Source: an uncultured Pseudomonadota bacterium
GTDB lineage: Bacteria; UBA10199; JADFYH01
DNA length: 60,558 nucleotides
Assembly (NCBI GenBank): GCA_964609335.1
Contig: CAZSRQ010000001.1
Span: 1-60,558 of the forward strand
Direction of reading: 5' to 3'
Position numbers and translations under genes: made by a program. The notes under the pieces are model-generated. The model made no database searches, was not told where the DNA came from, and saw only the letters and a program-made list of their open reading frames with translations. Below are positions 8,661 through 29,021 of this stretch, one piece after another. Positions within the stretch are counted from its first letter, which is position 1. Each line of letters starts with the position of its first letter.

Positions 8661-8761
8661 ACCTTATAGACCGAAGATCGAGCTTCCCTATTTAAAAGAC
8701 CAATGCTATCTGAGAAATTCCATTTAATTGAAATCTCTATCCTAATAGAAAGGACTAAACC

Positions 8762-9172: not shown

Positions 9173-9313
9173 TTTGGAAAAAATAATTGTTAAGTAGTTG
9201 GCCTGCTAATCATGATTTCTACCGCATTTCAAGGCGGAGCCTGACATCAGGCGATACAAGAGGTCGATTTAATAAATGACTGACAAAATGACATTTTTTA
9301 GATCGAATCCTGC

Positions 9314-10306
9314 TTAGGAAAAAAATGTCTTTTCAGCTTCTTCCGGCAATTTTTGCCCTGAGATTCTCACTCGCTGAATCAATTCCCAATAATAACGGTA
9401 AGTCGCTCGGTCATGCAGATCTCCTGCGAACTGGATCGGACCCCAATCGCTGCGATAAGCTTCAAGAAGAATATCGGATCCTTTTTTAACGAGCGAATAA
9501 TCAGGCGTCATCGCGGCAACAATCGATTCAATTTGGGTTGGATAAATCGACCACATTCGGAGGAACCCAAATTCATTTCTCGCACGATAGGCATCTTGGT
9601 AGGTTTTATACTGATCTTTCAGATCTAAAGTCACATTATGAGCCGGAACAATCCCATTCGCCAGTGCAGCCGCAACCACGTTTGACTTCGCACGAGCGAC
9701 CAATTTGTGCTCGAACTGTCCGGGGGATTTCATCGCGTTTTCAGGAATCGCCCCATGATGACCGGAAACGAAATCCATCAAGCCAAAATCAAGAACCTGC
9801 ATCCAGGGGAGTGACGCAATTTTATCGGCATCGCGAAGTGCGCCATGCGTTTCAACAAGAACATGAATCGGAATTTCCCGTTTGATATTCGCTTTTTTCG
9901 CTACCTGTTGGATATAACCAATCATCTCTTCGACTTGGGAAGCGGCAGTCGGTTTTGGAATGGTGATGTAAGCCACGATGTCACCGATCGCTGGAACAAG
10001 CTGATCGACATCTTGCCGCCAATGCTTGTTGGTATAATCATGAATTCGAACTCCACTCATCTTGTGCTGATTGAGAGCCGATTTCTGCATCGAGATAATC
10101 ATTTCGGCATGTTCTTTTTCTCGACCTTCTTGGGCACCATCTTCACAATCCATGGTAATATCAAAAACTCCCCCTTTTTTGTTTTGGAGCTCTAACGCTT
10201 TTGTGATCAGCTTTTCAGAGCCAGCAAAATGCTCACAGGCTGGGATGATTGGGAAAGGTTTTTCCCCTTCAAATAACGCTTCTTTTGGGTGGATATTTTT
10301 GGACAT
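9314..10306 (-). CDS. HpcH/CitE-family acyl-CoA lyase; candidate malyl-CoA/beta-methylmalyl-CoA lyase (Mcl-like)
   Basis: CitE-like motifs: DCEDGA, LVETHGALRDADKIA, GLMDFVS and WSIYPTQI. Start moved to the ATG at 10306 (MSKNIHPKE...), which has AAGGAG 7 nt upstream and removes the overlap with the epimerase gene. The ORF track's start at 10339 has no such support. Confidence 0.6.
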   Translation of the reverse strand: MSKNIHPKEALFEGEKPFPIIPACEHFAGSEKLITKALELQNKKGGVFDITMDCEDGAQEGREKEHAEMIISMQKSALNQHKMSGVRIHDYTNKHWRQDVDQLVPAIGDIVAYITIPKPTAASQVEEMIGYIQQVAKKANIKREIPIHVLVETHGALRDADKIASLPWMQVLDFGLMDFVSGHHGAIPENAMKSPGQFEHKLVARAKSNVVAAALANGIVPAHNVTLDLKDQYKTYQDAYRARNEFGFLRMWSIYPTQIESIVAAMTPDYSLVKKGSDILLEAYRSDWGPIQFAGDLHDRATYRYYWELIQRVRISGQKLPEEAEKTFFS

Positions 10307-10316
10307 AATTTTCTCC

Positions 10317-10742
10317 TTACTGTTTTTCAGATAATTCAATTAAAATTCCATTGGTTGATTTGGGATGAATAAACGCAATCTTCTTCCCATGCGCTCCAAT
10401 TCTAGGTTTCTCGTCGATCAATCTTATCCCCTTGCTCTTTAAATCAGCTAAATGGTGCTCCAAATCGCTCACCTCTAAACAGATATGATGAAGTCCGCTC
10501 CTCCCCTGAAGATTTGCTAAAAATTTTGAGATGGGGCTATCGGGAGCAGTGGGAAATAAAAGCTCAAGATTCGTTGGATCGCTTTCATGAGTACCGATCG
10601 CAAAAAAAGCAGCTTTGACTTTTTGGTCTTCCACCTCTTCAATATGATCCGGATCTTTCTTTAAAAGATTTTTAAAAAGTGAAATTGCCTCGTTGAGATC
10701 AGAAACAGCAATCGCGATATGATCGACTTTTTTGAAAGACAT
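10317..10742 (-). CDS. mce: methylmalonyl-CoA (ethylmalonyl-CoA) epimerase, glyoxalase/VOC fold
   Basis: 141 aa. VDHIAIAVSDLNEAISLF, GLHHICLEVSDLEHHLADLKSKGIRLIDEKPRIGAHGKKIAFIHPKSTNGILIEL matches the canonical MCE pattern. Confidence 0.8.
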   Translation of the reverse strand: MSFKKVDHIAIAVSDLNEAISLFKNLLKKDPDHIEEVEDQKVKAAFFAIGTHESDPTNLELLFPTAPDSPISKFLANLQGRSGLHHICLEVSDLEHHLADLKSKGIRLIDEKPRIGAHGKKIAFIHPKSTNGILIELSEKQ

Positions 10743-11256: not shown

Positions 11257-12828
11257 ATGCCTCAAAAGCTCCTTTCCGATGAACCGATCGTCACCCTTGA
11301 AGCGATGATTCGTCATCCTTACGATTTGGCGGTTGCCACTGCTAGAACCTGCTACTCTTCGAAGGGAATCATCAAGGTTGATGAGGTGAGCAAAGATGAA
11401 AAAGCAATTCTCCTGAGGGATAAAATTGCAATCTCGACCCGCGATGCCGGTCATTTGACCACACGCCAGCATGCCCATTTTGTTTTTTCGATTGAGAAAG
11501 TTTCCAGGCAAGCTCTTTGGAGTTTTTTACATAGCCATCCCTTCTACAACTCAGAGCAGGTGAGCCAAAGATATGTCAAAGTGAAATCGGGGAATTGGAC
11601 CATTCCGTTACTACAAGAAAATCAACTTTCAATTTATGAAAATTGCCTCCATCAACAGACAAAAAATTATGAAGAGCTGATTCAATTACTCATCCCAAAA
11701 GTCGAGGAAGAATATTATTCAATTTTTCCAGTTCGACGAAAATGGGCAACAAAATATCAAAATACGATTGCGAAAAAAGCGTATGAGATTGCCCGCTACG
11801 TTTTGCCCGTTGCAACCCATGCCTATCTTTATCATACGATCAGCGCGGTCACGCTCCTCCGATATTGGAAGCTGGTGAATCTTTTTGATACTTCTGTCGA
11901 GCAACGGCTGATGGTTGAAAAGATGATTCAAGCAGTTTTGACCGTCGATCCCGATTTTCAGAAGGAGTTGGATGATCCTTATCCGTTAGAAACAACTCCG
12001 GAGTGGGAGATATTTAAAAAGCAGGAGACAAGAGACAGAAGACAGAAAACAGAAAACTTCATGAAAGAATTTGATCAATCGCTCGAAGGACATGTTTCAA
12101 AACTGGTCGATTATAAAATCAATTCCGAGCAAACCGTTGCCAACTCTGTGAGAGAAGTATTCGGACTGACAACACCTGAAATGTCGGATGCCGAGGCGAT
12201 TGACCATTTGATGAATCCGGCAAAAAACCGTTATCTTGCTGAAACCTTAAATGTGAACACTCTGTCAAAACTTTCCCGCTGCATGATGCATGCGCATTAC
12301 ACTTTTAGAAAAAAAATCTCCCATACCGCTGACAGCCAAGATCAAAGACATCGGATGACTCCAGGATCACGCCCCTTGCTCGCCAGCCATTACAGTGGGA
12401 CTCCGGATTATATTCTTCCCAAGCTGGTGCAACTGCATTCCCAAATTGAAGAGCTTTATCATCAGTCGATGAAACAGACGTTTGAAAGTATCAATCAACT
12501 GCTCAACGATGGAGTTTCGTTTGAGTCAGCTCTCTATCTCTTGCCCAATGCCTACCCGATCCGTTTTGAAGAATCGGGCGATCTTCTGAATCTGCATCAT
12601 AAATGGCACACCCGCGCCTGTTATACAGCGCAGGAAGAGATCTTTTTCGCCACCATCGATGAAATTTCCCAGGTGAAAGATTTGCATCCAGCGCTTGCCT
12701 CAAAAGTTTTGGCCCCCTGCTACATTCGCAAACAAGCCGGGGTAAAGCCGATCTGCCCCGAAGGAGAACGTTTCTGCGGAGTAAAAGTCTGGGAAAAAGA
12801 GATCAATCAATATACCCGAGTGATCTGA
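11257..12828 (+). CDS. thyX: FAD-dependent thymidylate synthase ThyX-like, long (~520 aa) form
   Basis: HLTTRQHAHFVFSIEKVSRQALWSFLHSHPFYNSEQVSQRYVKV resembles the ThyX core with its SQRY motif. A second segment, HTADSQDQRHRMTPGSRP, carries the RHR triad. At about twice the normal ThyX length, it suggests two ThyX-like halves. Confidence 0.55.
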   Translation: MPQKLLSDEPIVTLEAMIRHPYDLAVATARTCYSSKGIIKVDEVSKDEKAILLRDKIAISTRDAGHLTTRQHAHFVFSIEKVSRQALWSFLHSHPFYNSEQVSQRYVKVKSGNWTIPLLQENQLSIYENCLHQQTKNYEELIQLLIPKVEEEYYSIFPVRRKWATKYQNTIAKKAYEIARYVLPVATHAYLYHTISAVTLLRYWKLVNLFDTSVEQRLMVEKMIQAVLTVDPDFQKELDDPYPLETTPEWEIFKKQETRDRRQKTENFMKEFDQSLEGHVSKLVDYKINSEQTVANSVREVFGLTTPEMSDAEAIDHLMNPAKNRYLAETLNVNTLSKLSRCMMHAHYTFRKKISHTADSQDQRHRMTPGSRPLLASHYSGTPDYILPKLVQLHSQIEELYHQSMKQTFESINQLLNDGVSFESALYLLPNAYPIRFEESGDLLNLHHKWHTRACYTAQEEIFFATIDEISQVKDLHPALASKVLAPCYIRKQAGVKPICPEGERFCGVKVWEKEINQYTRVI

Positions 12829-14222: not shown

Positions 14223-14912
14223 TCAGTTTCCGAACAACTTGCTCGAAAGACTTTTCGCATTTTCTGCAGTTGCAGGATTTTTGGTATGAGATGCCAAACT
14301 GTTTTTTAGCTTATCGTCTTTATTAATATTTCCACTATAAAGAAGGGCTCCTTTAATCGCATTATTAATCTGTTCCGGCTCCATTCCAGGCTTCGTCAAA
14401 TAAGCAACGGGAGGGGCATCGTACGGTTTGAATTCGGAATGAATTTCGGTCGAGACGAGTCTCGCATGCCCTTGTGCTTCACCAGGAATCTCTTTTGAGT
14501 AGTGATTATACTCAACCACTCCCCCTTTTTTTGCCTGCTTGATTTCATTCGGATTCAATTCTGTCTTGAAGGTGAGACCGTTTTTGAAATGATCCATGGT
14601 GATATAATGATTTGGATTTTCTACCACTTCTAGCGGAAGCAAGGTCACTTCCCACTCTTTGCTGTTCGGAATCTGTTTATAATCAACTAAAGCTCCGCGA
14701 ACAAAAAAGTCAGGATTATGAATTGCGTAAGAATCTGGCCAATCATTTTTCCAGGCAAGAAGTTTTTTCTCACGTGCGGTGACAACTCCAGAAGCTTCCT
14801 TCTTGGCAGCTCCCTTTTTTTTCGTTGCTGCTTGTGTGTTTGAACCTAAAACAAAAGCAGCCACTAAAAATAAAACCGCTAAAAAGCCAATCTTCTTTAA
14901 ATGCTTTTTCAT
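14223..14912 (-). CDS. secreted hypothetical protein (229 aa)
   Basis: AAGGAGG RBS and signal peptide MKKHLKKIGFLAVLFLVAAFVLGSNTQA. No family recognised. Confidence 0.6.
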   Translation of the reverse strand: MKKHLKKIGFLAVLFLVAAFVLGSNTQAATKKKGAAKKEASGVVTAREKKLLAWKNDWPDSYAIHNPDFFVRGALVDYKQIPNSKEWEVTLLPLEVVENPNHYITMDHFKNGLTFKTELNPNEIKQAKKGGVVEYNHYSKEIPGEAQGHARLVSTEIHSEFKPYDAPPVAYLTKPGMEPEQINNAIKGALLYSGNINKDDKLKNSLASHTKNPATAENAKSLSSKLFGN

Positions 14913-15802: not shown

Positions 15803-18800
15803 TCACCCTTTTCCCCCTCGTGCAAGTTCAAGAAGCCGCTCCGCTATCTGACGAGCATGTTCATGGGGATCAACGCTTCCAGAGTTTATAAATCCTTGCA
15901 AGAGCCGTCTGGCAGTTTCTTCTGGAGGTAACTCAGCCGATCTTTCTGCATGCCGCGAAAGCTCTAATCCTTGGCGAGTCGGAGAGTAAGTTTGATGCGC
16001 GGCCACTGCCTCATTAAAATGCCGAACCATGGAAGAATACAAATCTTTCAGATCGACCAAATCATCAATCGCTCCAACCTCCAAGGCACGCTGGGTTGTG
16101 TGGGCCGCATTGTATTTCTCTCCCTCTCGCACTTCAATTTCGCCAATCACTTGATGCAAAGCTTCCTGGTATTTTTCATCAGATATTTTTTTGGCTTCCT
16201 GAACTCTAGGATCTTTCTCGGCTCTTCTCGCAATTTCTCCCCGAGCAACAATATTGGTATAGATATTCGCTCCAACCACACGAACCGCTGTAATCAGATT
16301 TTCGTGGCGAATCGCAATAATTCGATGTTGGCCTTGTTCTTCCGGCCGCCTGAGCTGCTTACTGACTGAAACCATGTATCCGCCAATCAACGAAGAAAGA
16401 TCGACACAAAGGTAGGGGTAGCGAAGCCGGCTCACTGCATCTTGCAGAGAAGCACCCCAGGTTAACTGTTTTTCAATCATCGCTTGGGGATCGGCCATAT
16501 AAAATGGATTTCCTGCATTCAAATTAATGACCGGCAAACCAAGCAGATCGGCCTTTCGAACCGCCTTGGTATAAATTTCAGAATCGAGGGGAGTCAACGC
16601 ACCACTGAGAGCGATCCAGAGAGTCGAACGGCCTTGATATTGCTGAATTCGTACCTGAATATTGGGAGGTTTTCTTAAAATTCCGCCAATCCGATTTTTA
16701 TCTCCTCGAACGGTCGGTAGATGTTCAGGTGGAACTTTTCCCAAAAGATCTTCAATTTCTCCCCACAATCGAATTTCAGGAGGAGAACCTGGATCTCGAA
16801 ACGCATCCATCACCGCCTGCATATTCCAGGGAGGTCGGTTTCCAATCATCGCAATCAATTCGTCTTTCACCGTTCGGCTAAGAGCAAGAGATTTCGGATG
16901 TTCTTTTCGAAGCAAATCGATGATCTCTTGAGGATTCACCTCTTGACCACGAGAAATCTGTTCTAAAGTTTCTTTTAAAGTGGCACCCGAAGCAAGACGA
17001 AGATTCAAGGCAGCCGCATCAGAGGATTGTTGAAAAAGCGCAATAACCTCCGCAGGTCTCAGTCTTTTTCCCTCGGCAAGTCCCAGTAGCTGAGCTTGAA
17101 AAGAGGGGCCGGAAACAAAAGTCAAAGGATCGATTGGAGAAATCGGAGCAGAACGACGAAGCGGAATAAGCGTTTCAGGCCTTCGAAGTGCCGTATAATA
17201 ATAAGCCCGATTCAACAGATCGAACGCCTCACTCAAATCTTGGGTACCGATCATCCCTTCGCCATTTCGTCCGTAGATCTCGCGGTATCCCCCCATCGAT
17301 CTTGTTCCTTCGGGATAAGACCGCTTCACTTCTCCATCGATATCCCAACTTTTCAAAGTAGGCTTATAGGCAATAATCTGCGCCCCAGGGCCGGTCAGAA
17401 TTGCGGTTCCGGTATCTCGTACAAAAACATTCAATCCTGCCGTATCCAGAAGCATCGTTCGCCGAGCCGTATCATAGGCTGCTCCGCCAACCACATAACG
17501 ATAAACAATTTCATGAATCGGCCCCTGCTCTTCGGCAATATAACGATTCGTCACTCCAAGGTGAGAGGCAATTCCATCCAGATGCTCAACTCCGGTTTCC
17601 GCGTTTACATCGGCGCCAGGAGAAGCGGAAACCGATTCCACCGGAACTTCAAATCCATATTGACGACTCAATTTTCGCGCTAAAGCCAAGGCGCCGTTCT
17701 TGCGCGCCGATGTTTCAGGATCCAGTGCTCCGCCATTTCGGGTAAGATCACCAATCATCATAACCACGGGAAAAGGTCGCTCTAATCCGAGATCTCGATA
17801 GCTGACAGCCACCACGACTCCTGCTTTATTTTTTCCTGGCAATCTCGATGTTCCGTCTTTCTCAACAGCAGGAACCAGCTCACCCGAGAAATAATCGATC
17901 TGTCCTGTCTTGGGATTTTTCCGGATGGAAGCAGGATCAAAATCATATTCCACTTCATGATCGATAAATATCCCCTCTGGAACTGATTGAGATCGATCCA
18001 AAAGATCTTGCGGACTTTGTATTCCCAAAGATTCCCGAAACTTTCTCGCAGAAAGCCTGGCGACCGATGGAATTCTGGCAGCAAAAATACCGGCTTTTGC
18101 CACCTCTCTTTCTTCCCGAAGACCGACTTCATCCCTCGGCAAAATCGGCTGATCGGCCAGCTGATAAGATCCCGCCGAAAAAATTACCAAAGGATCTTTC
18201 TTCCAAAGAGAATAATTGAACGGATCGAGATGAACTTCTCTTTTAACCGCCCTTTCCCCCTCTTCCAAAATCACGTTTCCCTGAACCACATACTTCAAAT
18301 TATGAACAAACTGATATCCCGTGGGATTTGCAATCTCGGTGATGATCGGCTGACATTCTCCTGTTTGCGGATCCTGAATCAAACCTCTCACCGTTGTTTT
18401 TTGCAGGCGAAGCCCCTTCAATCGGCCATCTTTCTCCGTTTGCTTGGCGAGCCGTTCGGAGTAGTTTGTAAACTCTTCCGCAGAGATCGGAAGCGGAGGA
18501 AGAATCTCGACATGCGCCTGATTCCAGCCCGGCTGTTGTTCTTTCGGTCTGCTTTGAAGAGATTTTTTCATCACATCGAGAAGCGCCTCAAATCGGGTTC
18601 TGATTTCTGGAATCTCCTGAAGCGTTCCATCGGCTGTTCGAATGACGCGGGCTTCAGAAACGATCGATCTTCCAAACATTCGTCGATCTTTCTTTTGAGG
18701 ATGCTCGACGTAAAAAACATGGGAAGAAACATCCGAATGAAGCGAATCCCGTTCTCTCTTCGGAAATAATGCAAGGTTTCCGAGCCGTAAATAATGATGT

Positions 18801-21800
18801 CCAACCAGCGGATGATATCCACGACAAAGACGGTCTTCTGACAAAACTCCTCCCCTCACCTGACCCAAAAGCTGAGGCTGATACTCACTTAATTTTGGTG
18901 TTCCAGCGAGTGAAGTGACAAATCTCTGAAGATCTTCGGTTCTTCGATAAGTAAAATAAGTGGGGGGATTTCCCAATCGCTCTTTTGAGGCGGGATCAAT
19001 CACGGTAAAAGTGACCCTCTTCAGATAAGTTGCAGCGACAAGATCATTGGTAAACACAGCGTTGGCCGCGGTTGCCAAAAAATCGGAGGTCGCTTCATCG
19101 GAAAGCAATCCGCCGGTCTTTGAATCGTAGGGACGCTTCACCACCAACTCAATCACATTTTGTTCATGGCCAACGCGGGAATTCCGGCGAACGATTTCAG
19201 CCGCTTCAAGCAGATCCTTTTCGCAACTTCCCTCCAAAGACCATCGGTGAAGCATCAGCCGACCTTTTTTCGGTTCTTGGGGATGACCATTTTCCTCGGC
19301 AAAAAAAGTAAGAGAGGTCCGGGGATCGATCCGTTGATATCCAACCACTTCTCTTGAAGCCTGATGTTCTTCTCCCTGTCTTTTTTCGCGCAATTTTCTT
19401 CTAACAATAACTTCATCCAAAAGAGTTCTTTCACTTTCAGTTCTCGTCTCCTGAACCATTTCCAACAGTCTTGAAATCAGCGAACGGGGCAGACTTCCCA
19501 TCTCTTCGATAAAACGGGCTCTCGCCGGTGCATTCGACGGAAGCTCTGCAATCCCGGACAAGAGGGGATTATTTCGGGCCAATACCCTCTCCCGAACATA
19601 TTCCGGTAAATCGTGGGGAGGTCTGTCAATCAGCTGGGCATAGGTAATTTCAGGATGAACATTGGCTTCGTGGGGAACAAGCGAAAAAAAGAGGTTTCCC
19701 CGTTTGTCACGGACTTGGAGAAGAGTTTGACCAACCGCCGGAATCAGTTCCAAGGTAAAACGATTTCCCTCCGCATCGTCGTGTGGAATTTGAAAAAGCT
19801 GCCCTCTCTGTTTTTTGGACGTTTGTGCAGAAAGAGAAAGTTCAACAGGAGCTTGTCCATGCGAATAATAATGAAGAGCGGGAATAAACTGATCCCCTTC
19901 TCTTGTGAAAGCAAAATCATAATAAGCCGGAGAGGCACTGCCTGTTGGAAGATGAGCGAGTGGAGCATCATCGGCCAACAACAAACGGGTCGGCTGACCA
20001 TTTTCAAAAGCAGCCAATTGTAAAAGATGACCTTCGGGATTCACTTGAACCCAGAGACGTTGGAGAGATCGATCGACCGTGTGGGAAGTGGCAAGCGAGG
20101 CGCGAAACGGTTCATCGGTTTGCAATCTTTCGACGATTGGTCCTTTCAGATGTTTCAGTGGAGCGGTTTCACCCCGAAGCAGGGCAGAAAATTCAGCACC
20201 GATCCCCTCTCCTGTTTCAGCGGAAATTGGATGATCGGATCCAATCTCGAGATAGATCGGCGGAAAAGGTTCGACATTCGGAAAAGCCTGCGCCCGATAT
20301 GGCGAAAGAGTCAGATCTTCTCCCCCAGCTGCTTTCCATCTTTCGATGGTTTGGTTGGTGTAATCTCCCCGGCGAATGAAACGGGTCGCAAAAACATTTT
20401 GCAAAAGGAGAAGATTGCTTTGAAAACCTTTTTCTCCCGTCAGCTGCACCGATCGGAGGACAAATTGCATTTTTTCAATGGCATCTTCTCTCGTCTCTCC
20501 ACGAACCACAAGTTTTGCAATCAACGGATTCGAATGTGCTGAAACGACATCTCCTTCTGTATAAGTCGGATAGACAATCACCCCATGTTTACGAAGATGA
20601 TGAAACTCTGGAGTCCCCAAAATTCTAAATCGAGTCATCGGCCCAGGCATCACCGCATTGATACGAACCTCAACGGCTGCCCCTTTGGATGGAAGCCCTA
20701 CGCTCGAGAGCGGAAGTCCTTTTCCAACGCGAATCGCTTCACCAATCAGATTTACTCCTGTCACCGCTTCGGTGACGACATGCTCCACCTGAATTCGGGG
20801 ATTGTCTTCCATGAAGAAAAAATTTCCATCCGGAGTGAGCATTCCTTCAACCGTATTGTGGGAGGTAAGCCCCAAAACCATCGCTGCCCGAATTGCTTTT
20901 CTTCTGAGCTCCTCGCGAAGTGCCGGATCTTTTACAAAATCGAGTGCCGGATGCATCTCAACAATTTTTGACCCTCCTACTTGTAAAGTACATTCCCTCT
21001 CTCCATCCGAAACTCCATTGCCGTAGGTATCAATCCTCACCTGAAATTCAATATGCCGGAATGCGGAAACGAAACCTTCAGCCAACATATCTCCGAGTCC
21101 AAACGCATTTTGAGCCTCCTGAAATTTGGTCGGGAAATTTGCCCGAAGTTGTCCTTCATCGAGGGCGTTGAATTGACCCATCCCCGATCCTCCTGCAACC
21201 GCCTTGATTCGGAGAGGATAGGAAAGCCCCCTTGCCCTGATTTCGGCAATCATTCCCTCCACATTGCTATATTGGTGAATCGTTCCCGGAACAATCGGTA
21301 ACCCTGCCGCATCCCATGCCTGTTTCGTGGCGAGCTTGTTTCCTGCCTTGCGAAGCCCCGCGACCGGAGGTCCAAGCCACACATAGCCTGCACCGTAAAC
21401 CCGCTCCGCGAAGACTTCATTCTCAGCCAGAAAACCGTATCCAGGATGAAGCGCATCTGCTCCTGCTTTGCTGGCAGCCTCTAAAATTCTTTCATGATTG
21501 ATATAGCTCTCTTTTGGACTTAAACCGCCAATCGAAACCAGCTCTCCTCCCATTTCCCGAACTCGCCTCATCCAGCTCAACTCTTTTCCTCCCGCAATCT
21601 CTGCATCCGAATAAACCACCATCGGAACAAGCTCCTCTCCTGTTGCCTTCGCATAATCCAAAACCCCTTGTGTAATCTTGACGGCAATTTCTCCACGATT
21701 AACGACCAATACTCTTCTCAAATGTGGATTAATTCTTGTTTGCAGTCCTGGATATAAAACCTGCGACAATAGCTCTCTTTTATCCGGAGGAATATCGCTT

Positions 21801-22810
21801 CTCCCAATCAAGGCAACTCTTGCAGCCTCCGGATCGCGTTTGATCGCGTCAATCGCCCGGCCATACTCCTGGGAACCATGAGGGGCTTTGAAATAGGCAT
21901 CCAGAGTCTCTTTCGCTCTTGGAGTGGCTGATTCGCTGGAAATGGCCACACCCCCTTCAGAAGAGCCCAGAGGAATTCCATGCCAATCATTCGATTCATT
22001 CGACACAGAAAACAGATGCGTTTTTCTCGCTTCTGCCTCTTTGCCACCCGAAACCTCCGAAGCACTCATCAAAATCCCTTCGGGTGTGACCAACTGTTCT
22101 GCGCTGCGAAAGCCAAAACCGAATGAAAATCTGGAACCTTTTGAGGTTTTACTGAGTTCAAAGTTTAACCGGAATTTTGCCTCATACATCGCCACCGCAG
22201 GGGCCACCTGTCTCACCAGACATCCACTCGCCATCATCTGCCAATTGATCACCTCATTCGAACAGACTTTCTCAAAGAAGCTTCCCTGGCTTGCCTCTGT
22301 CAAACCGGCAACCACACAAACGCTGTCAAGACCGACCATCAGAACATCCTGACTGATATGTTGCAGAGCAATATTATTGGCGGGAAGGATACAGCCGGTC
22401 GTCTTCATCAACATAATCGTCAAGGTTGTGTGAGCCCACCCCTTTAACCCTTCACTGAACTTGGTCTCAAGGGTAGGAGTTCCCCGGAGATACTCAGGCA
22501 GACTATGCATCCCGACCGCCTCGGTCATGCAGGCCGCTGCCGAGGAAATCACCTGGGCACCCATCGATCCATAGGCAGATTTTTGAAAAAATGAGACAGA
22601 GGAAAGCAAACGGGAACAGTAAGCCTTGGTGGCAGTTCCGAAGATCCCCCCTGCCACCATTCCGCACAACATGTACCCATCGGTCGCCTGTTTGAAAAAA
22701 GATTGAAAAAGCTGCGAAGTGGCAAGCTGGGAAGAACTCAACTCACACTCATTGGAATCCTGCAAAAACCCGGAAGAAACAAGAGTTTCTGAAATCGTTA
22801 AACCGGCCAT
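15803..22810 (-). CDS. giant (~2,335 aa) multidomain carboxylase-like protein: novel ~365-aa N-terminal region, biotin-carboxylase (ATP-grasp) domain, ~790-aa central region and carboxyltransferase domain; no biotinyl (BCCP) motif seen
   Basis: Single uninterrupted ORF. BC-like motifs at aa ~369-830 (nt ~20336-21721): VLVVNRGEIAVK, HPGYGFLAENEVFA, KAVAGGSGMG, ERECTLQVGGSKIVE and MEDNPRIQVEHVVTE. CT-like motifs at aa ~1620-2265 (nt ~16031-17968): VVMMIGDLTRNGGALDPETSARKNGALALA, SASPGADVNAETG, VVGGAAYD, ILTGPG, LPVINLNAGNPFYM, SSLIGGYMVSV and ALEVGAIDDLVD. No (A/V)MKM was found by eye. The ATG at 22810 is preferred over the GTG at 22825. Confidence 0.75.
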   Translation of the reverse strand: MAGLTISETLVSSGFLQDSNECELSSSQLATSQLFQSFFKQATDGYMLCGMVAGGIFGTATKAYCSRLLSSVSFFQKSAYGSMGAQVISSAAACMTEAVGMHSLPEYLRGTPTLETKFSEGLKGWAHTTLTIMLMKTTGCILPANNIALQHISQDVLMVGLDSVCVVAGLTEASQGSFFEKVCSNEVINWQMMASGCLVRQVAPAVAMYEAKFRLNFELSKTSKGSRFSFGFGFRSAEQLVTPEGILMSASEVSGGKEAEARKTHLFSVSNESNDWHGIPLGSSEGGVAISSESATPRAKETLDAYFKAPHGSQEYGRAIDAIKRDPEAARVALIGRSDIPPDKRELLSQVLYPGLQTRINPHLRRVLVVNRGEIAVKITQGVLDYAKATGEELVPMVVYSDAEIAGGKELSWMRRVREMGGELVSIGGLSPKESYINHERILEAASKAGADALHPGYGFLAENEVFAERVYGAGYVWLGPPVAGLRKAGNKLATKQAWDAAGLPIVPGTIHQYSNVEGMIAEIRARGLSYPLRIKAVAGGSGMGQFNALDEGQLRANFPTKFQEAQNAFGLGDMLAEGFVSAFRHIEFQVRIDTYGNGVSDGERECTLQVGGSKIVEMHPALDFVKDPALREELRRKAIRAAMVLGLTSHNTVEGMLTPDGNFFFMEDNPRIQVEHVVTEAVTGVNLIGEAIRVGKGLPLSSVGLPSKGAAVEVRINAVMPGPMTRFRILGTPEFHHLRKHGVIVYPTYTEGDVVSAHSNPLIAKLVVRGETREDAIEKMQFVLRSVQLTGEKGFQSNLLLLQNVFATRFIRRGDYTNQTIERWKAAGGEDLTLSPYRAQAFPNVEPFPPIYLEIGSDHPISAETGEGIGAEFSALLRGETAPLKHLKGPIVERLQTDEPFRASLATSHTVDRSLQRLWVQVNPEGHLLQLAAFENGQPTRLLLADDAPLAHLPTGSASPAYYDFAFTREGDQFIPALHYYSHGQAPVELSLSAQTSKKQRGQLFQIPHDDAEGNRFTLELIPAVGQTLLQVRDKRGNLFFSLVPHEANVHPEITYAQLIDRPPHDLPEYVRERVLARNNPLLSGIAELPSNAPARARFIEEMGSLPRSLISRLLEMVQETRTESERTLLDEVIVRRKLREKRQGEEHQASREVVGYQRIDPRTSLTFFAEENGHPQEPKKGRLMLHRWSLEGSCEKDLLEAAEIVRRNSRVGHEQNVIELVVKRPYDSKTGGLLSDEATSDFLATAANAVFTNDLVAATYLKRVTFTVIDPASKERLGNPPTYFTYRRTEDLQRFVTSLAGTPKLSEYQPQLLGQVRGGVLSEDRLCRGYHPLVGHHYLRLGNLALFPKRERDSLHSDVSSHVFYVEHPQKKDRRMFGRSIVSEARVIRTADGTLQEIPEIRTRFEALLDVMKKSLQSRPKEQQPGWNQAHVEILPPLPISAEEFTNYSERLAKQTEKDGRLKGLRLQKTTVRGLIQDPQTGECQPIITEIANPTGYQFVHNLKYVVQGNVILEEGERAVKREVHLDPFNYSLWKKDPLVIFSAGSYQLADQPILPRDEVGLREEREVAKAGIFAARIPSVARLSARKFRESLGIQSPQDLLDRSQSVPEGIFIDHEVEYDFDPASIRKNPKTGQIDYFSGELVPAVEKDGTSRLPGKNKAGVVVAVSYRDLGLERPFPVVMMIGDLTRNGGALDPETSARKNGALALARKLSRQYGFEVPVESVSASPGADVNAETGVEHLDGIASHLGVTNRYIAEEQGPIHEIVYRYVVGGAAYDTARRTMLLDTAGLNVFVRDTGTAILTGPGAQIIAYKPTLKSWDIDGEVKRSYPEGTRSMGGYREIYGRNGEGMIGTQDLSEAFDLLNRAYYYTALRRPETLIPLRRSAPISPIDPLTFVSGPSFQAQLLGLAEGKRLRPAEVIALFQQSSDAAALNLRLASGATLKETLEQISRGQEVNPQEIIDLLRKEHPKSLALSRTVKDELIAMIGNRPPWNMQAVMDAFRDPGSPPEIRLWGEIEDLLGKVPPEHLPTVRGDKNRIGGILRKPPNIQVRIQQYQGRSTLWIALSGALTPLDSEIYTKAVRKADLLGLPVINLNAGNPFYMADPQAMIEKQLTWGASLQDAVSRLRYPYLCVDLSSLIGGYMVSVSKQLRRPEEQGQHRIIAIRHENLITAVRVVGANIYTNIVARGEIARRAEKDPRVQEAKKISDEKYQEALHQVIGEIEVREGEKYNAAHTTQRALEVGAIDDLVDLKDLYSSMVRHFNEAVAAHQTYSPTRQGLELSRHAERSAELPPEETARRLLQGFINSGSVDPHEHARQIAERLLELARGGKG

Positions 22811-23074
22811 AAAACAAAAAACCACTTCTTCTCTGCTCCCTTCACCTTTGGCAGAAGAAAAAGCAGGAAAAGTAGTTCTTCAAGATTAAATATTTGGTTA
22901 GTGGGACTGTATCTGTTTCGAGAAAGAATGAAAAAAGTTGCGCAAAAAATGAGATTTTTTAAAAAAATATTTTTTAATTTTCAAAACCTGCTTTAAACAT
23001 TTGTCTTTTTATTTTCAAAAAGTATAATCCGCGGAAATCATCCTAAATAACCAAATAAATTCAAAGGAGGGGTC

Positions 23075-23776
23075 ATGAAAAAAATTCCCGTTTTTTTCTT
23101 TTGTGCGTGCCTGTTTTTGGGGGCTTACCGGCTGTCTGCAACAGAGCTATCGGGAGCTGAGCTGTCTTCTCATTCCGAAAAAACTGAAATTCCACTGAAC
23201 ACCCTAAAAGTGAAAGGGAACTGCGGATCCGGATTTACCAATCATCCGCCGGTAATCAACGTTTTTCATGAGGTGAGAAACGACGTCGACTCTAGGGTCA
23301 GCGGTGGAGTCTGGGCGGTTGACAACTATAAAAGAACCATCAAGGTCTGGGATCAAACCGTTCCATTCCCCCCTTTCAAACTTTACTGTGCCAAAGTTGA
23401 ATATGATGGTTTGTTCACCACGCTCGGCGGAGAAAGCCCTCAAGGGACCGATCCAAGCCTCGCGGTTGGAATTACCGGTTCGATGAGTGGAGGATATTTA
23501 ACCACTATTTTTTCCGGTACCCTGAATCCAACCCCCGGCAAACCGACCTCGGGAAATTTGGGAACTATTAACTATCGTTGCACTTCGTCTGATCCGGGCG
23601 ATCACAGCTCCTGCACCAATCTCTGGATCTGGCAAACCACCTATTTCACCTCAACCACCGGGCTCGATTACGATTATTGGGGATGGAGTTACGATGGGGA
23701 TGAGCATGGAACCTGGCTCAACTCTTGCGCCGGAAAACCGGGATGTCCTGGAAATAACGGGGATATTACAGACTGA
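23075..23776 (+). CDS. secreted hypothetical protein (233 aa)
   Basis: AAAGGAGG RBS and signal peptide MKKIPVFFFCACLFLGAYRLSA. The mature part is Gly/Thr/Trp-rich. No family recognised. Confidence 0.6.
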   Translation: MKKIPVFFFCACLFLGAYRLSATELSGAELSSHSEKTEIPLNTLKVKGNCGSGFTNHPPVINVFHEVRNDVDSRVSGGVWAVDNYKRTIKVWDQTVPFPPFKLYCAKVEYDGLFTTLGGESPQGTDPSLAVGITGSMSGGYLTTIFSGTLNPTPGKPTSGNLGTINYRCTSSDPGDHSSCTNLWIWQTTYFTSTTGLDYDYWGWSYDGDEHGTWLNSCAGKPGCPGNNGDITD

Positions 23777-23820: not shown

Positions 23821-24525
23821 TTAGGAAGCCGGCTTTCCAAATTCGACTCTTCCACTTTCAATCGAATAAATCGCCGGAACAATCACAATTCTTTTTCTTT
23901 CAAACTGGCTTTCCAAAAGCCGGCTTTCTTTCAGAAGTGATTTGATCACCCCTCTCGCATTGGCAAAAGCAGCCTGATAATATCCATTTCCCGATGCACC
24001 ATTCTCCAGACTCCCTTCTCCAATCAAAATATTTTTTCGAATCGAACTGTTCAAACGCTCAAGCGCCGGGGAAATTACCGCAGAGCTGGGGGATGAATTG
24101 ATCGCTGAATGAACCGCACCACACGAGTCATGCCCCATCACGATAATCAGATGCGCTTCCAATTTCTTTACCGCATATTCAATGCTGGCGATATTGTCGG
24201 AGTTTAAAACATTTCCGGCAACCCGAATCACAAAGAGATCCCCCAATCCCTGATCAAAAACCATTTCGGGTGGAACACGGGAGTCGGAACAGGAGAGAAC
24301 TATGGCAAAAGGTTTTTGTTCATTGGCAAACTTTTCCCTTTTGGAAACAATATTCTGGTTTACATTCACCAGCTTTCCCTGGATAAAACGCCCGTTTCCC
24401 TCCTGCAGTTTTTCAATAAACTGGGTTTGAAGCGAATCAACCAGCCTCAAATCATCGGCGAAGGAAAAAAAGGGGGAATAAAAAAAGAAGAGAAAAAAAA
24501 CAAAAACGGTTTTTTGAATTTTCAT
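23821..24525 (-). CDS. beta-class carbonic anhydrase with a signal peptide
   Basis: CSDSRVPPEMVFDQGLGDLFVIRVAGN and GHDSCGAV are the beta-CA zinc-ligand motifs. Start set at MKIQKTVFVFFLFFFYSPFFSFA (24525), which avoids overlap with the upstream gene. Confidence 0.75.
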   Translation of the reverse strand: MKIQKTVFVFFLFFFYSPFFSFADDLRLVDSLQTQFIEKLQEGNGRFIQGKLVNVNQNIVSKREKFANEQKPFAIVLSCSDSRVPPEMVFDQGLGDLFVIRVAGNVLNSDNIASIEYAVKKLEAHLIIVMGHDSCGAVHSAINSSPSSAVISPALERLNSSIRKNILIGEGSLENGASGNGYYQAAFANARGVIKSLLKESRLLESQFERKRIVIVPAIYSIESGRVEFGKPAS

Positions 24526-24541
24526 AGAAGAAAATTTTAAA

Positions 24542-26044
24542 CTAACTGAGCGGGGCAGACAATTGAATAATATCAGGATTCGTCTCGACATAATGAATGG
24601 CAAAGTGGAGCTCTTCTTTGCTTTCTGCAAAAATCGTAAAAAGAACCTCCCCTTTCTTCACCTCTTCCCCCATTTTTTTATGGAGATAAACTCCGGCACC
24701 CGGATCTTGGGGAGCACCGGCAAGTTTTGCCACTTTCGCAATTTTAAGATTTTGGATGGACAAGATTTTTCCGCTCTTCATACTCTTGATTTCATGTTGG
24801 TAAATGGCTTTTACCAGTTTTTTGAGGGGACCCTGACTCTTCGCAATTGCCCAGAATTTTTCGAGTGCTTTTCCGGAATCGAGAATGTTTTCGGCAATCT
24901 CCTGTTCTTTTCCATTTTCAACTTTTCCGCTCAACTTCAGAAGTTCAGCTGCCAAAAAAAGTGATTTTTTTCTCAGATCTTGTGGGGCATTTGGATCTCT
25001 TTGCAAAACCTTCAGGACATCTTCCGCTTCAAGCACCGGACCGATCCCTCTTCCAATCGGTTCGGAACCATCGGTACAAAGCACTTTCAAGGTTAAACCG
25101 ATTTTGGTTCCGATTTTCTCAAAAAACGCGGAAAGTCTTTCCGCCTCTTCTTTCGATCGAATCTTCGCAAGCGGACCGACCGGAATATCAATCAGAACAT
25201 GCGTGGAACCTGCCGCCTTCTTTTTGGAAAGAATCGAGGCGATCATCTGCCCTTCAGAGTCAAGATTCAGCGATCTTTCTACCGAGATGATAATATCATC
25301 GACCGGAGCGAGTGAGAGCGCTCCTCCCCAGGTGATACAGGCATTTTCTTCAGAAACCACTTTTTTCATTTCGGGGAGAGAAAGAGTCACATTCGTAATC
25401 GCCTCCATCGTATCGGCGGTTCCGGCCGGAGAGGTAATCGCACGAGAAGAGGTTTTTGGAATCGGCAAACCGTAGGCCGCAACGATTGGAACCACAATCA
25501 TCGTAGTCCGGTTTCCAGGAATTCCTCCAATCGAATGTTTGTCGAGAACGAGTGGAAGATCCCAACTGATCTGTTCTCCTGTTTCAATCATCACCTCGGT
25601 CAAATGTTGAATCTCCTCTAAGCTCAAACGCTGTTTGGCACAGGCGATCACAAAAGCGGTCAGTTCAATATTGGAATATCGATAGGATAAAATATCCCGT
25701 ACAATTTCAGAGAATTGACTTTTGGTAAAAACGGCACCATCCAGTTTGTTTCGGGTGTAATCGGTCGAAAGGAGAGGATTTGGATGAGCCAACGAAACCA
25801 GCGTCTCTTCATGAACCCCCAACCGCTCAAAGGCAATATTGCTCAGCCCAATCTCGCCTGATTTCACGAGACCATTTTCCGTCATATTAATGGTCGCCAA
25901 AATGCTATGCGCCCCATGATAAACCTCAATTCTTGAAAGCGCGCGAAATCCCTGACTTTTGCAAATCTCGCAGTCATGCGGAAGATAGGCGATATTTTCC
26001 TTGTAAGTATCAATGCGGATTCGTTTGACTTTGAGTTGGGACAT
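24542..26044 (-). CDS. thymidine phosphorylase family protein (long ~500-aa, AMP-phosphorylase-like form)
   Basis: HSIGGIPGNRTTMIVVPIVAAYGLPIPKTSSRAITSPAGTADTME and the domain order fit the family. The first 18 codons of the ORF-track version are encoded by a palindromic repeat, so the start is moved to MSQLKVKRIRID (26044). The start remains uncertain because no SD is present. Confidence 0.7.
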   Translation of the reverse strand: MSQLKVKRIRIDTYKENIAYLPHDCEICKSQGFRALSRIEVYHGAHSILATINMTENGLVKSGEIGLSNIAFERLGVHEETLVSLAHPNPLLSTDYTRNKLDGAVFTKSQFSEIVRDILSYRYSNIELTAFVIACAKQRLSLEEIQHLTEVMIETGEQISWDLPLVLDKHSIGGIPGNRTTMIVVPIVAAYGLPIPKTSSRAITSPAGTADTMEAITNVTLSLPEMKKVVSEENACITWGGALSLAPVDDIIISVERSLNLDSEGQMIASILSKKKAAGSTHVLIDIPVGPLAKIRSKEEAERLSAFFEKIGTKIGLTLKVLCTDGSEPIGRGIGPVLEAEDVLKVLQRDPNAPQDLRKKSLFLAAELLKLSGKVENGKEQEIAENILDSGKALEKFWAIAKSQGPLKKLVKAIYQHEIKSMKSGKILSIQNLKIAKVAKLAGAPQDPGAGVYLHKKMGEEVKKGEVLFTIFAESKEELHFAIHYVETNPDIIQLSAPLS

Positions 26045-26058
26045 AGAAATGGTTGGGA

Positions 26059-26127
26059 GTTTGGGGTCGGGGGTTAGGGGTTTGGAGATTTTTTTCACTC
26101 CTAACTCCTAACCCCCGACCCCAAACT
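26059..26127. repeat. GC-rich hairpin repeat, family C
   Basis: AGTTTGGGGTCGGGGGTTAGGGGTTTGGAG - loop - CCTAACTCCTAACCCCCGACCCCAAACT. It fills the gap between the response-regulator gene and the phosphorylase gene. Confidence 0.75.
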
Positions 26128-26133: not shown

Positions 26134-27519
26134 TCATTCTTCTTCCAAATTGCTTAATTCCGGATACATCGCAATTTTATTATAAAGAGTTTTACGATCA
26201 ATTCCCAAAACCTTGGCCGCCTGACTCCGATTGTTTTTTACCTTTTTCAATACCTGTAAAATATATCTTTTTTCCATCTCTTCCAAAGTTGAAATATTTT
26301 CTGCAGAAGAAAACTGAAAGTCGTCAGGATTTTTATTCTCAACCGATGGAAGTTGCAGATCCTGCGGAGTAATCCATTCCCCTTCTGCCAGCGCCACCGC
26401 CCGCTCGATCATATTTTCAAGCTCCCGGATATTGCCTGGCCAATCATAATTCACCAGCAGGTGGAGAGCCGCCTCATCGACCCCCTTGATCTGTTTTTGA
26501 AAACGGGTCGACATTTTTTCGATAAAATGTCTGACAAGAATCGGGATATCTTCGCGCCGATCTTTCAAGGGAGGAAGTTCAATACTCACCACATTCAGAC
26601 GATAAAAAAGATCTTCCCGGAATCTTTTCTCTGCCACCATTTTTTTGAGATCCTGATTCGCCGCTGCAATCCACCTTACATTGATAATCTGGTTATTCGT
26701 CGATCCAAGCGACCGGATTTCACGCTGCTGGATTGCCCGAAGAAGTTTCGGTTGAAGTGAAAGAGGAAGATCGGCAATCTCATCCATAAAAAAGGTTCCG
26801 CCATCCGCCTGCTCAATCAATCCCTCTTTATCCCCCTTCGCATCGGTAAATGCCCCTTTTTTATATCCAAACAGTTCTCCTTCGAGAAGCGCTTCGGGAA
26901 TGGCGGAACAGTTCAGTGTCACAAAAGGGCCACTCGCACGAGTCGAGCTGTCATGAATCGCGCGGGCAAAGAGCTCTTTTCCGGTTCCGCTCGGGCCGGT
27001 GATCAACACATTGATATCGCTTGTCTTGATTTTTTCAATCAGCGAAAAAATCGAACGCATCTTCGCACTTTGGGAAATGATATGATGATAGGTGGAATCA
27101 CGGATTAAAGTCGTTCGGAGCTGATGAATCTCGGTTCGAAGTGCCGAGGTTTCGATGGCACGAGCGACCGTCAAAAGAATTTTCTCCGAATGAAAAGGTT
27201 TCTCAATATAATCAAATGCCCCATTCCGGATCGCCTCAATCGCCGAATCAACGGTTCCGTAGGCGGTCATGATGATGACCGGAATCCAGGAAAAATCCTT
27301 CTGAACCATCTTCATCAGATCAAACCCGCTTTCGCTTTTTAATCTCAAATCGCTGATCACCAGATGAACATTGTGTTTTTGAAGATTCTCGACCGCCTCT
27401 TCGATCGAATGCGCTTCGAGAATTGTATAATGTCCCACTTCTTCGAGAAGATCGGAGAGAAGCGAAAGAACTTCCGGGTTATCATCAACCACCAAAATTT
27501 TTGATTGGGATTTAGTCAT
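26134..27519 (-). CDS. sigma-54-dependent response regulator (NtrC family: REC, AAA+ and Fis-type HTH domains)
   Basis: KILVVDDN, ITGPSGTGKELFARAIH, the GAFTDA variant of GAFTGA, the WPGNIRELEN motif, and a C-terminal AAKVLGIDRKTLYNKI. Confidence 0.85.
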   Translation of the reverse strand: MTKSQSKILVVDDNPEVLSLLSDLLEEVGHYTILEAHSIEEAVENLQKHNVHLVISDLRLKSESGFDLMKMVQKDFSWIPVIIMTAYGTVDSAIEAIRNGAFDYIEKPFHSEKILLTVARAIETSALRTEIHQLRTTLIRDSTYHHIISQSAKMRSIFSLIEKIKTSDINVLITGPSGTGKELFARAIHDSSTRASGPFVTLNCSAIPEALLEGELFGYKKGAFTDAKGDKEGLIEQADGGTFFMDEIADLPLSLQPKLLRAIQQREIRSLGSTNNQIINVRWIAAANQDLKKMVAEKRFREDLFYRLNVVSIELPPLKDRREDIPILVRHFIEKMSTRFQKQIKGVDEAALHLLVNYDWPGNIRELENMIERAVALAEGEWITPQDLQLPSVENKNPDDFQFSSAENISTLEEMEKRYILQVLKKVKNNRSQAAKVLGIDRKTLYNKIAMYPELSNLEEE

Positions 27520-27521
27520 TG

Positions 27522-29021
27522 TTATACACTCAATCTTTGGGTCATGAGACGCTTGGATGAAGTTGAAACCGCTTTTCGTTCGCGAATCGGCAAATAGACA
27601 TCAAATTGAGATCCCTGATTCGGTTTGCTTTGAACCAGAATATGCCCTTCATGCTCCTGAATAATTCCATAGACAATGGAAAGCCCGAGGCCGGTTCCTT
27701 CTCCATTTGCCCTCTGGGAAAAAAACGGTTCAAAGAGATGCGCTTTTGCCTCTTCTTTGATTCCAACTCCGGTATCTTTGATACTGATCCGAACCCAGGG
27801 GAGAAGATTTCCATTGTCTGTCACCTGATCGGTACTCAACGTCAGCTTTCCCCCGCGCGGCATCGCTTCAATCGCATTCTGGATCAAATTGATAAAAACC
27901 TGCAACAGTTGATCGGGATCCCCCTCCACTTTTGGTAAATGCGGAGAAATCCTCTTTTCCAGCTCCAGGGGAGAACGAATTTTCTCCTCAAAAAGTTCAA
28001 GTGCCTGAGATAAAACCCGATTTAAATCAATCGAGGTTTTATGAATCGGTCTTCTTCTTCCAAAGGCCAAAACATCTTTAATCATTTTACTCAACCGTTG
28101 GGATTGGGTCACAATCAAATTCAGATTTTTCTCAACGACTTGAGCTTCATTTGCTTTTTTCAACGCTTGAGCCGCTCTCCCTTCAATCACCGAAATAGGG
28201 CTTCCCATTTCATGAGCCAGATCGGCGGCAAATTTTCCGATGACAGCCAGCTTTTCTGATTGTTGCAATTGATCGAGCAACTCCTCTTTTTCCTGCACTG
28301 ATTCAAAAAGCACATTTTCAAGCTGCTGAAGATGAGATTCCCTTTTGGTAAACTCCTGTTTCAGAATGGTTAACTCATGACCTTTTTGAACTGAACCTTC
28401 ATTTCCATTTTTATTTTGAACCTCTCGAATCAGGGTGGCAATCGGTTGATTAATATTTTTACGGATAACAAAAAAGATGACGGTCAAACTAAACAGGAAA
28501 AAAAGCATCAAAGAGGTAAAAACCTTTCTTTGATATCCCTTTAAATCTCCACTGATCACTGATTGATAGTCAAAAATCTGTAAAATACCGAGCAAATTTC
28601 CCTCTTCGGATTCAATCGGAAAACTGCAGACAATAAATGCTTTTCCAAGATAATTCTTTTTTTCGACAAACGCCTCATCTTCACCCATTTCTTGAATCAG
28701 TTGGGAAATGCTGATATCGGGAATTTTTTTGAGGCTTTTCGTTTGATAAAAGTTTTCTCCATTTTTTAGGTAGATTCGAAGCCCCATCGGTTGCTCAAAA
28801 ACAGTAATTCGATTGAGCAGTTTTTTTAGATAGGGGAGATTTTCAGAGGTGAGATTCGCTTCAATAATTTCGCGCATCGACTCCCCAAAAGCCTGGGTTC
28901 TCTTGATCAGTTGAGCTTCCGCATACTTTTTCTGCTCTCCGAGAAAAACATATCCATAGATAGAAGCGGCCAACGTGCAGAGGATAAGAATATTGATTAA
29001 AACTTTGTTTCCGATGGTCAT
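27522..29021 (-). CDS. sensor histidine kinase
   Basis: 499 aa. Two TM segments flank a ~150-aa extracytoplasmic domain. H-box AADLAHEMGSPISVIEG, N/G boxes NLIQNAIEAM and GTGLGLSIVYGII. The gene sits 2 nt from the response-regulator gene. Confidence 0.85.
   Translation of the reverse strand: MTIGNKVLINILILCTLAASIYGYVFLGEQKKYAEAQLIKRTQAFGESMREIIEANLTSENLPYLKKLLNRITVFEQPMGLRIYLKNGENFYQTKSLKKIPDISISQLIQEMGEDEAFVEKKNYLGKAFIVCSFPIESEEGNLLGILQIFDYQSVISGDLKGYQRKVFTSLMLFFLFSLTVIFFVIRKNINQPIATLIREVQNKNGNEGSVQKGHELTILKQEFTKRESHLQQLENVLFESVQEKEELLDQLQQSEKLAVIGKFAADLAHEMGSPISVIEGRAAQALKKANEAQVVEKNLNLIVTQSQRLSKMIKDVLAFGRRRPIHKTSIDLNRVLSQALELFEEKIRSPLELEKRISPHLPKVEGDPDQLLQVFINLIQNAIEAMPRGGKLTLSTDQVTDNGNLLPWVRISIKDTGVGIKEEAKAHLFEPFFSQRANGEGTGLGLSIVYGIIQEHEGHILVQSKPNQGSQFDVYLPIRERKAVSTSSKRLMTQRLSV

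Follow-up and report, generated by a model that had tools for sequence, protein, structure and literature searches.

Can an acyl-CoA carboxylase built as a single chain dispense with its own biotin carrier? This question is raised by a gene on the minus strand of a 60,558-nucleotide stretch of DNA from an uncultured Pseudomonadota bacterium (GTDB lineage UBA10199, JADFYH01; assembly GCA_964609335.1, contig CAZSRQ010000001.1). The whole stretch is called the window. To our knowledge, all characterised single-chain biotin carboxylases tether their own biotin carboxyl carrier protein (BCCP). The window gene encodes a divergent member of a rare family of bacterial proteins that resemble the eukaryote-type, single-chain acyl-CoA carboxylases (acetyl-CoA carboxylase, ACC, and its like). 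The family has no biotin carboxyl carrier domain, having either lost one or never possessed it. The domain order is: N-terminal domain (N-domain), linker, biotin carboxylase (BC), BT-like beta block, ACC central domain and carboxyltransferase (CT) (Table 1). The N-domain appears to be a new domain family, not described before. From this combination we infer a mechanism with a carrier supplied in trans.

Integrity of the gene and members of the family

The open reading frame (ORF) encodes 2340 aa if the GTG at 22825, preceded by GGGAG about 10 nt upstream, is the start, and 2335 aa if the ATG at 22810 is. Residues are numbered from the ATG throughout. The predicted mass is ~260 kDa. The motifs quoted in a first-pass annotation of the window (MEDNPRIQVEH, KAVAGGSGMG and ERECTLQVGGSK) are all found in the translation. 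Rfam, promoter and terminator scans around the gene gave nothing of note. The unusual length of the ORF and the nature of the window (a metagenomic contig) would fit an artefact of assembly or gene calling that fused separate genes, which the first-pass annotation had named as a possible refutation. This explanation can practically be discounted: the gene is one uninterrupted frame of even base composition along its whole length, and collinear full-length relatives (2421-2504 aa) with the same domain order are found in seven independent assemblies. Because these assemblies all show the same architecture, the ORF is not a mis-assembly.

Five full-length relatives (P0002-P0006; 2421-2461 aa; 31-34% identity) were found by a search of 5.8 billion proteins, in which all other matches have only the BC domain in common with the window protein. 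The annotation of these five gives BC, ACC_central and Carboxyl_trans in every case, and Biotin_lipoyl in none. Full-length relatives were located by a genome scan in metagenome-assembled genomes (MAGs) labelled UBA10199-1, "Deltaproteobacteria SJ577", MAG045 and JTS-RE212. Two more loci came from a metagenome scan. A seventh relative, the full-length P0092 (GCA_046346885.1; 2504 aa), was reached by the search with the N-terminus; its identity is 31% with the window protein (aa 19-2283) and 41% with P0004. The family is put at eight members in all (the window protein, P0002-P0006, P0092 and further copies at loci L087 and L088), collinear over their full length, with 31-41% identity. Residue conservation was assessed on an alignment of seven members: the window protein, P0002-P0006 and P0092. 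A homologous-protein search with the central-region alignment scored nothing. Leptospira-type single-chain carboxylases were considered as relatives and rejected, their homology being confined to the BC part.

The four-part architecture proposed by the first-pass annotation is borne out by Pfam, by family profiles compared with PDB and by AlphaFold2 (AF2) models searched with Foldseek. Its likeness to eukaryotic ACC is confirmed as well: the central and CT profiles match yeast and human ACC.

A biotin carboxylase with conserved ligands

Three Pfam families cover the BC domain: Biotin_carb_N (aa 364-483), CPSase_L_D2 (aa 493-702) and Biotin_carb_C (aa 736-823). NCBIfam gave generic biotin-carboxylase models only, all far under their cut-offs. 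The domain scores higher against bacterial BC, methylcrotonyl-CoA carboxylase and pyruvate carboxylase than against eukaryotic ACC.

Sixteen BC positions are identical in all seven aligned members (E. coli numbering): Y82, K116, K159, E201, H209, E211, Q233, K238, E276, E288, N290, R292, Q294, V295, E296 and R338. They include the biotin/bicarbonate ligands R338, E296, K238 and R292. The E. coli AccC reference sequence used has the expected residue at every key position. The ligands of ATP, Mg, bicarbonate and biotin are intact in the alignment save H236.

Absence of a biotin carrier domain

No match to Pfam Biotin_lipoyl was found at E<1 in the window protein or its relatives. The biotinylation motif, searched as [AVSEC]MK[MLAV], is absent outside the N-domain from all seven aligned members; the sole match, AMKL of P0005, is within the N-domain, and P0092 has no MK dipeptide anywhere. 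No lysine is invariant between aa 766 and 1264 of the seven-member alignment. In profile-profile comparison (hhalign), the region from BC to the central domain matched a BCCP alignment with a probability of 0.06-0.13%, and the whole-length family alignment with 2.7% at best. As a positive control, the BCCP of Leptospira-type enzymes was found by the same method at 99.1%. The absence of a carrier from the giant ORF, claimed from the first reading, is therefore upheld by Pfam, motif and profile-profile tests with a working control. Literature searches on BCCP-less ACC or on bacterial ACC_central found nothing. A neighbouring gene was considered as the carrier and rejected: the conserved ~250-aa gene downstream of the relatives' ACC-like gene has no counterpart in the window.

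The central region and the carboxyltransferase

The first-pass annotation had left ~790 aa between BC and CT as unknown sequence. This is corrected here: the region is homologous to the central domain of eukaryotic ACC. The C-terminal third of Pfam ACC_central matches aa 1325-1501 with 32.6 bits (cut-off 23.2), and ACC_central scores 65-91 bits in the relatives. A family profile of the central 760 aa matches only the ACC central domain of yeast, human and Chaetomium in PDB; the best matches are yeast 5CS4/5CSK (E 2e-11; yeast residues 1212-1421). Sequence searches detect no more than the C-terminal, AC4-5-like part, and identity to the eukaryotic central region is just 12-16%. The AF2 model of aa 822-1581 (mean predicted local distance difference test, pLDDT, 64) shows, in order: helices, an 11-strand beta block, a short helical part and alpha/beta domains. 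Foldseek with this model gave eukaryotic ACC structures only (yeast holoenzyme, E 3e-20). The model also matches the yeast BT-BCCP-AC1-AC5 fragment, a collinear match at pLDDT 60-78 that gives no residue-level mapping. Since the profile and Foldseek matches of the central region are all to eukaryotic ACC, the protein is assigned a eukaryote-type ACC architecture.

The family profile of the C-terminal 800 aa matches both lobes of yeast and human ACC CT (E 1e-10); the bacterial propionyl-CoA carboxylase (PCC) beta subunit is a weaker match (E 4e-7). Four relatives pass Pfam Carboxyl_trans. The two-lobed CT described in the first-pass annotation is thus supported through the family profile and the relatives, but it is not detectable from the window segment: because this segment by itself matches nothing, its identity as a CT rests on family homology. 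The CT motifs of the window protein are SPGA and VVGGAAY in the N lobe, PFYMADP and LIGGYMVSV in the C lobe. With the numbering offset fixed by a HMMER alignment to yeast CT, the oxyanion-hole positions are invariant in the family: A1733 corresponds to yeast A1627 (SGA), and G2143-G2144 to yeast G1997-G1998. The position of yeast R1954 is not conserved in the family.

Three insertions of ~37, ~32 and ~15 aa lie between the CT lobes of the window protein (aa 1880-2030, nt ~16720-17170). None is found in UBA10199-type relatives, and only the last is also present in P0092.

The N-terminal domain

The N-terminus, called unrecognisable in the first-pass annotation, proves to be a conserved domain common to 138 other protein clusters. 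These were found by phmmer with aa 1-363 against 1.84 billion representatives (E<1e-3; 17 clusters at E<1e-10; best 4e-46), and all are matched at their own N-terminus in proteins of 174-2575 aa. The domain has no Pfam or NCBIfam match. Its composition is rich in Gly, Ala and Ser. According to a Pfam census of 57 N-domain proteins, the C-terminal modules are of several kinds. Signalling: histidine-kinase ATPase, Ser/Thr kinase, GGDEF, PAS, receiver and FHA. Enzymes: class I/II aminotransferase, CDP-alcohol phosphatidyltransferase, phosphatidylserine decarboxylase, FGE-sulfatase and ADP-ribosylglycohydrolase. DNA-binding: HTH and sigma-70 region 4.

In an alignment of 32 N-domains, E97 is invariant and Q28, F38, L48, K136 and H151 are nearly so. 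The conserved motifs are QATD..L..M..GG, G.LK..G, QN..LQH and AE..N.QM. The AF2 model is a seven-helix bundle (pLDDT 79.7; predicted template modelling score 0.72) followed by a disordered linker, which ends in a pre-BC motif conserved in the family alignment, PEAARVALIGRSD. A hydrophobic-x-x-E-G linker motif after the N-domain is weakly enriched (34/142 versus 7/89). A transmembrane N-domain was considered and rejected, the hydropathy being too low in most members: the grand average of hydropathy is 0.06, the maximum over 19 residues has a median of 1.25, and 1.6 is reached by 9 of 137 members.

The window N-domain is tied to those of UBA10199-type relatives by jackhmmer and hidden Markov model (HMM) searches (E 1e-14 to 1e-22). 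The UBA10199-type version has an extra N-terminal extension plus an insertion. An HMM of that version gave no significant match among the window ORFs (E 1.1); the homology emerged only from the window's own N-terminus and the bridging protein P0092. A homologous-protein search with the N-domain alignment gave mainly short unnamed fragments.

Only one N-domain gene is found in the window. A sample of 20 cluster representatives placed at least 12 N-domain proteins in the MAG that encodes P0092 and holds locus L089 (locus tags U1F57_). Among these are the ACC-like protein, a 1803-aa PlsC-like protein (1-acyl-sn-glycerol-3-phosphate acyltransferase), a 1486-aa class I/II aminotransferase, three Ser/Thr-kinase/FGE proteins and a 2575-aa AAA ATPase. 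The N-domain is a new module, reused widely within a phylum about which little is known. Its pattern (N-terminal position, flexible linker, many paralogues per genome, tandem arrays with lipid enzymes) suggests an unrecognised way of organising bacterial enzymes.

A short motif, [ST][IV]L[SDE]R..S, stands ahead of the helical bundle in most N-domain proteins; in the window protein it reads ISETLVSS. The pre-bundle stretch of the window protein (aa 1-25, nt ~22736-22810) is predicted to be disordered and could be a recognition peptide.

Gene neighbourhoods of the relatives

Locus L001 (JASOAK010000009.1, MAG UBA10199-1, 3999-26609) holds six consecutive giant genes on the same strand, each headed by a ~300-aa N-domain. 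These tandem N-domains are 40-67% identical. One of the genes is ACC-like, one is a ketosynthase (KS) giant and the other four have no Pfam match. The KS giant (1725-2129 aa) carries FabF/FabB-like ketosynthase domains, and a conserved gene of ~250-274 aa lies between it and the ACC-like gene. The order ACC-like gene, ~250-aa gene, KS giant is found at six loci (L001, L082, L084, L086, L087 and L088).

The neighbourhood in the window matches L089. Both have the ACC-like gene, FolB, an ORF of 104/109 aa (thioredoxin-like ferredoxin, 68% identity between the two loci), an ORF of 229/236 aa (52% identity) and a double-domain ThyX. The latter (window 11257-12828, 523 aa; L089 21728-23290, 520 aa) includes two Thy1 stretches and is about double the usual length. 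A 526-aa low-complexity protein rich in Ser, Ala and Gln, without Pfam match, is encoded in L089 (17615-19195) between the ACC-like gene and FolB; it has no counterpart in the window.

Comparison with known carboxylases

The window protein shares with eukaryotic ACC (yeast Acc1, 5CSK/5CSL; human ACC1, 6G2D/8XL2) the order BC, putative BT-like block, central domain, CT. These enzymes provide the only solved structures that match the central region and the best matches of the CT profile. They differ by a biotinyl domain, placed after BT and ahead of the central domain, which the window protein lacks. The spacing from BC to the AC4-5-like part is also shorter in the window protein (~410 aa); the yeast region between BC and AC4-5 is ~640 aa. 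The E. coli system (AccC, AccB, AccA/AccD) has the same BC catalytic residues, and its BCCP is a separate, shuttling polypeptide; its BC and CT are separate proteins without a central domain, whereas the window protein fuses both around a eukaryote-type scaffold. Leptospira-type proteins (P0067-P0081, 1940-2030 aa) are likewise large bacterial single chains with BC and CT, but they have a clear biotinyl domain and are homologous to the window family in the BC part only.

Among characterised bacterial enzymes, the nearest is SACE_4237 of Saccharopolyspora erythraea, an actinobacterial homodimeric multidomain ACC. It is a single chain of ~200 kDa with BC first and CT last, includes BT and BCCP domains and lacks an additional domain at the N-terminus; the malonyl-CoA that it produces feeds fatty-acid synthesis, and the CT is a relative of the eukaryotic one (PMC6491548). 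As judged from this published description, it resembles the window protein as a bacterial single chain with BC first, CT last and a central region otherwise known only from eukaryotic ACC. The window protein differs by the lack of BCCP, by its 360-aa N-terminal extension, by its larger mass and by its origin (an uncultured lineage versus Actinobacteria). The single-chain bacterial long-chain acyl-CoA carboxylases (LCC), put forward in the first-pass annotation, are a poor comparison: in LCC, including that of Mycobacterium avium subsp. paratuberculosis, CT is N-terminal, BC-BCCP is C-terminal and there is no central domain (PMC6491548), whereas the window protein has BC first, CT last and a central domain.

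The family adds a second bacterial lineage, beyond Actinobacteria, with a "eukaryotic" ACC central domain, which bears on the origin of eukaryotic ACC. A carrier-less family with intact BC and CT sites and a central scaffold also tests the need for tethering in such an architecture; it is a natural counterpart to engineered BCCP-deletion constructs.

Proposed mechanism and alternatives

The explanation judged best, and held with moderate confidence, is a divergent eukaryote-type acyl-CoA carboxylase-like enzyme that uses a BCCP in trans and has its N-domain as a placing or assembly module. The enzyme is probably active. Its BC domain would retain the carboxylation of biotin with ATP and bicarbonate; its CT domain would pass the carboxyl group on to a short acyl-CoA, the likeliest acceptor being acetyl-CoA and the product malonyl-CoA. 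A BCCP encoded by another gene would bear the biotin, as happens in the usual multi-subunit ACC of bacteria. The N-domain, viewed as a lineage-specific module present on many enzymes and signalling proteins and joined to the carboxylase by a flexible linker, would most likely place or assemble the enzyme at a common cellular site with other N-domain proteins. The partners would include enzymes of lipid synthesis, joined in more distant relatives by a ketosynthase megaprotein. That the biotin and bicarbonate ligands of BC stay invariant while overall identity is down to 31-41% speaks for a functional biotin carboxylase and hence, by a further step, points to a carrier in trans. The need for such a carrier or for a different mechanism, foreseen in the first-pass annotation, is supported. 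The KS giant downstream of the ACC-like gene at six loci provides a link to malonyl-consuming chemistry. Several observations weigh on the other side. H236 is replaced (by G, N or D) in all members, and the glycine loop reads GGSGMG in the window protein and P0092 (G165S, R167M). The window CT segment alone has no PDB match by phmmer and no Pfam Carboxyl_trans match at E<1, and its GF motif has a one-residue insertion. A tblastn search of the window and of ~100 kb of the relatives' loci gave no BCCP gene. No lipid gene adjoins the ACC-like gene in the window or in L089. The role given to the N-domain is deduced from its distribution only; the domain is not clearly membrane-spanning, and Foldseek with its model found no relative in PDB or BFVD (best E 0.25-0.3).

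The loss of H236, the glycine loop altered in the window protein and P0092 and the window CT missed by Pfam and by phmmer against PDB, added to the absence of BCCP from every member and to the retention of a non-catalytic central domain, would also fit a pseudoenzyme: an ACC-derived protein that has lost its carrier, carries out no carboxylation any more and, recruited through the N-domain, acts as a platform with a structural or regulatory function. This is unlikely, however, as the sixteen catalytic or substrate-binding BC residues are invariant in so divergent a family and so are the CT oxyanion-hole positions, a pattern expected under selection for catalysis. An enzyme with an unconventional carrier, or with none, is improbable too. 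It would act on free biotin, on a carrier borne by a co-assembling N-domain protein or on a cofactor attached to K136 of the N-domain. K136, invariant in the seven ACC-like members, is shared by at least 90% of the N-domains aligned, the long disordered linker to the N-domain resembles a swinging arm, the gene neighbourhoods have no BCCP, and the relatives are flanked by tandem N-domain proteins of unknown function. Yet the same domain is found on kinases, histidine kinases, GGDEF proteins and DNA-binding proteins, where a carboxyl carrier would make no sense; it is all-alpha, unlike the biotinyl/lipoyl fold; and known BC and CT enzymes use free biotin very poorly as a substrate. A broader possibility, put forward tentatively, is that the ~220-aa N-domain marks an unknown protein-addressing or assembly system acting on dozens of proteins per genome. 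In UBA10199-like MAGs and unclassified relatives, this system would bring together at one cellular structure ACC-like carboxylase and ketosynthase megaproteins, a PlsC-like acyltransferase, CDP-alcohol phosphatidyltransferase, phosphatidylserine decarboxylase, aminotransferases, kinases, histidine kinases and AAA ATPases. The carrier-less ACC would then be part of a non-covalent lipid-synthesis megacomplex in which a partner supplies the carrier.

The first-pass annotation had suggested another role: the gene could supply the carboxylase that the ethylmalonyl-CoA-type cluster close by lacks, with the beta-carbonic anhydrase encoded a short distance away as a helper. The window does include pathway-type genes (2925-10742), which are ethylmalonyl-CoA- or methylaspartate-cycle-like, as well as the carbonic anhydrase gene, and no gene for PCC or for crotonyl-CoA carboxylase/reductase (Ccr) was seen in it. 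The suggestion is nevertheless not supported and is considered very unlikely. In L089, where FolB, both small ORFs and ThyX are retained, neither ethylmalonyl-CoA genes nor a carbonic anhydrase occur within 10 kb; the other relatives have the gene in a ketosynthase array. Unrelated genes on both strands (ThyX, DUF1361, PIN, FolB) separate the gene from the cluster. The known carboxylase of the pathway, the NADPH-dependent Ccr, is not a biotin enzyme and belongs to another superfamily; no medium-chain dehydrogenase/reductase (Ccr-type) domain was found by Pfam in the window protein, which matched BC and ACC_central only.

Features of the window

Table 1. Domains of the carboxylase-like protein and other genes discussed in the text. 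Coordinates are those of the window.
Feature	Description	Coordinates	Strand	Basis
Whole ORF	stop codon 15803-15805; single uninterrupted frame	15803..22825	minus	
N-terminal domain	aa ~20-225; new, all-alpha, seven predicted helices	22136..22753	minus	phmmer, alignment, AF2
Linker	aa 226-363; low complexity, predicted disordered at start	21722..22135	minus	pLDDT <50 after aa ~233
Biotin carboxylase (ATP-grasp)	aa 364-828	20327..21721	minus	Pfam, NCBIfam; PDB profile E 1e-111
Post-BC region	aa 829-1236; helices, 11-strand all-beta BT-like block (aa ~917-1044), short helical segment	19103..20326	minus	AF2, Foldseek
ACC-central-homologous region	aa ~1237-1560; AC4-AC5-like alpha/beta	18131..19102	minus	Pfam, PDB profile, Foldseek
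Divergent carboxyltransferase	aa ~1640-2265	16016..17893	minus	family profile matches both yeast/human ACC CT lobes
Mutase	fused MM_CoA_mutase + B12-binding, 656 aa	2925-4895		
Mesaconyl-CoA hydratase		5498-6658		
Acyl-CoA dehydrogenase	550 aa, with N-terminal extension	6830-8482		
HpcH/malyl-CoA-lyase-like gene		9314-10339		
Epimerase	glyoxalase-fold	10317-10742		
Beta-carbonic anhydrase		23821-24630		

Four ORFs of the window have no Pfam match: 1605-2777 (390 aa), 14223-14912 (229 aa), 23075-23776 (233 aa) and 45700-47634 (644 aa). The 229-aa ORF is the one kept beside the ACC-like locus in L089. At 26134-29021, upstream of the carbonic anhydrase and phosphorylase genes, lies a sigma-54-dependent two-component pair made up of a histidine kinase and a response regulator with AAA+ and HTH_8. 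The beta-carbonic anhydrase ORF, called from a TTG, has ~108 aa before its Pro_CA domain and shares 89 nt with the end of a thymidine-phosphorylase-like ORF (24542-26098); the true starts are uncertain. The thymidine-phosphorylase-like ORF has an N-terminal extension of its own, of ~110 aa.

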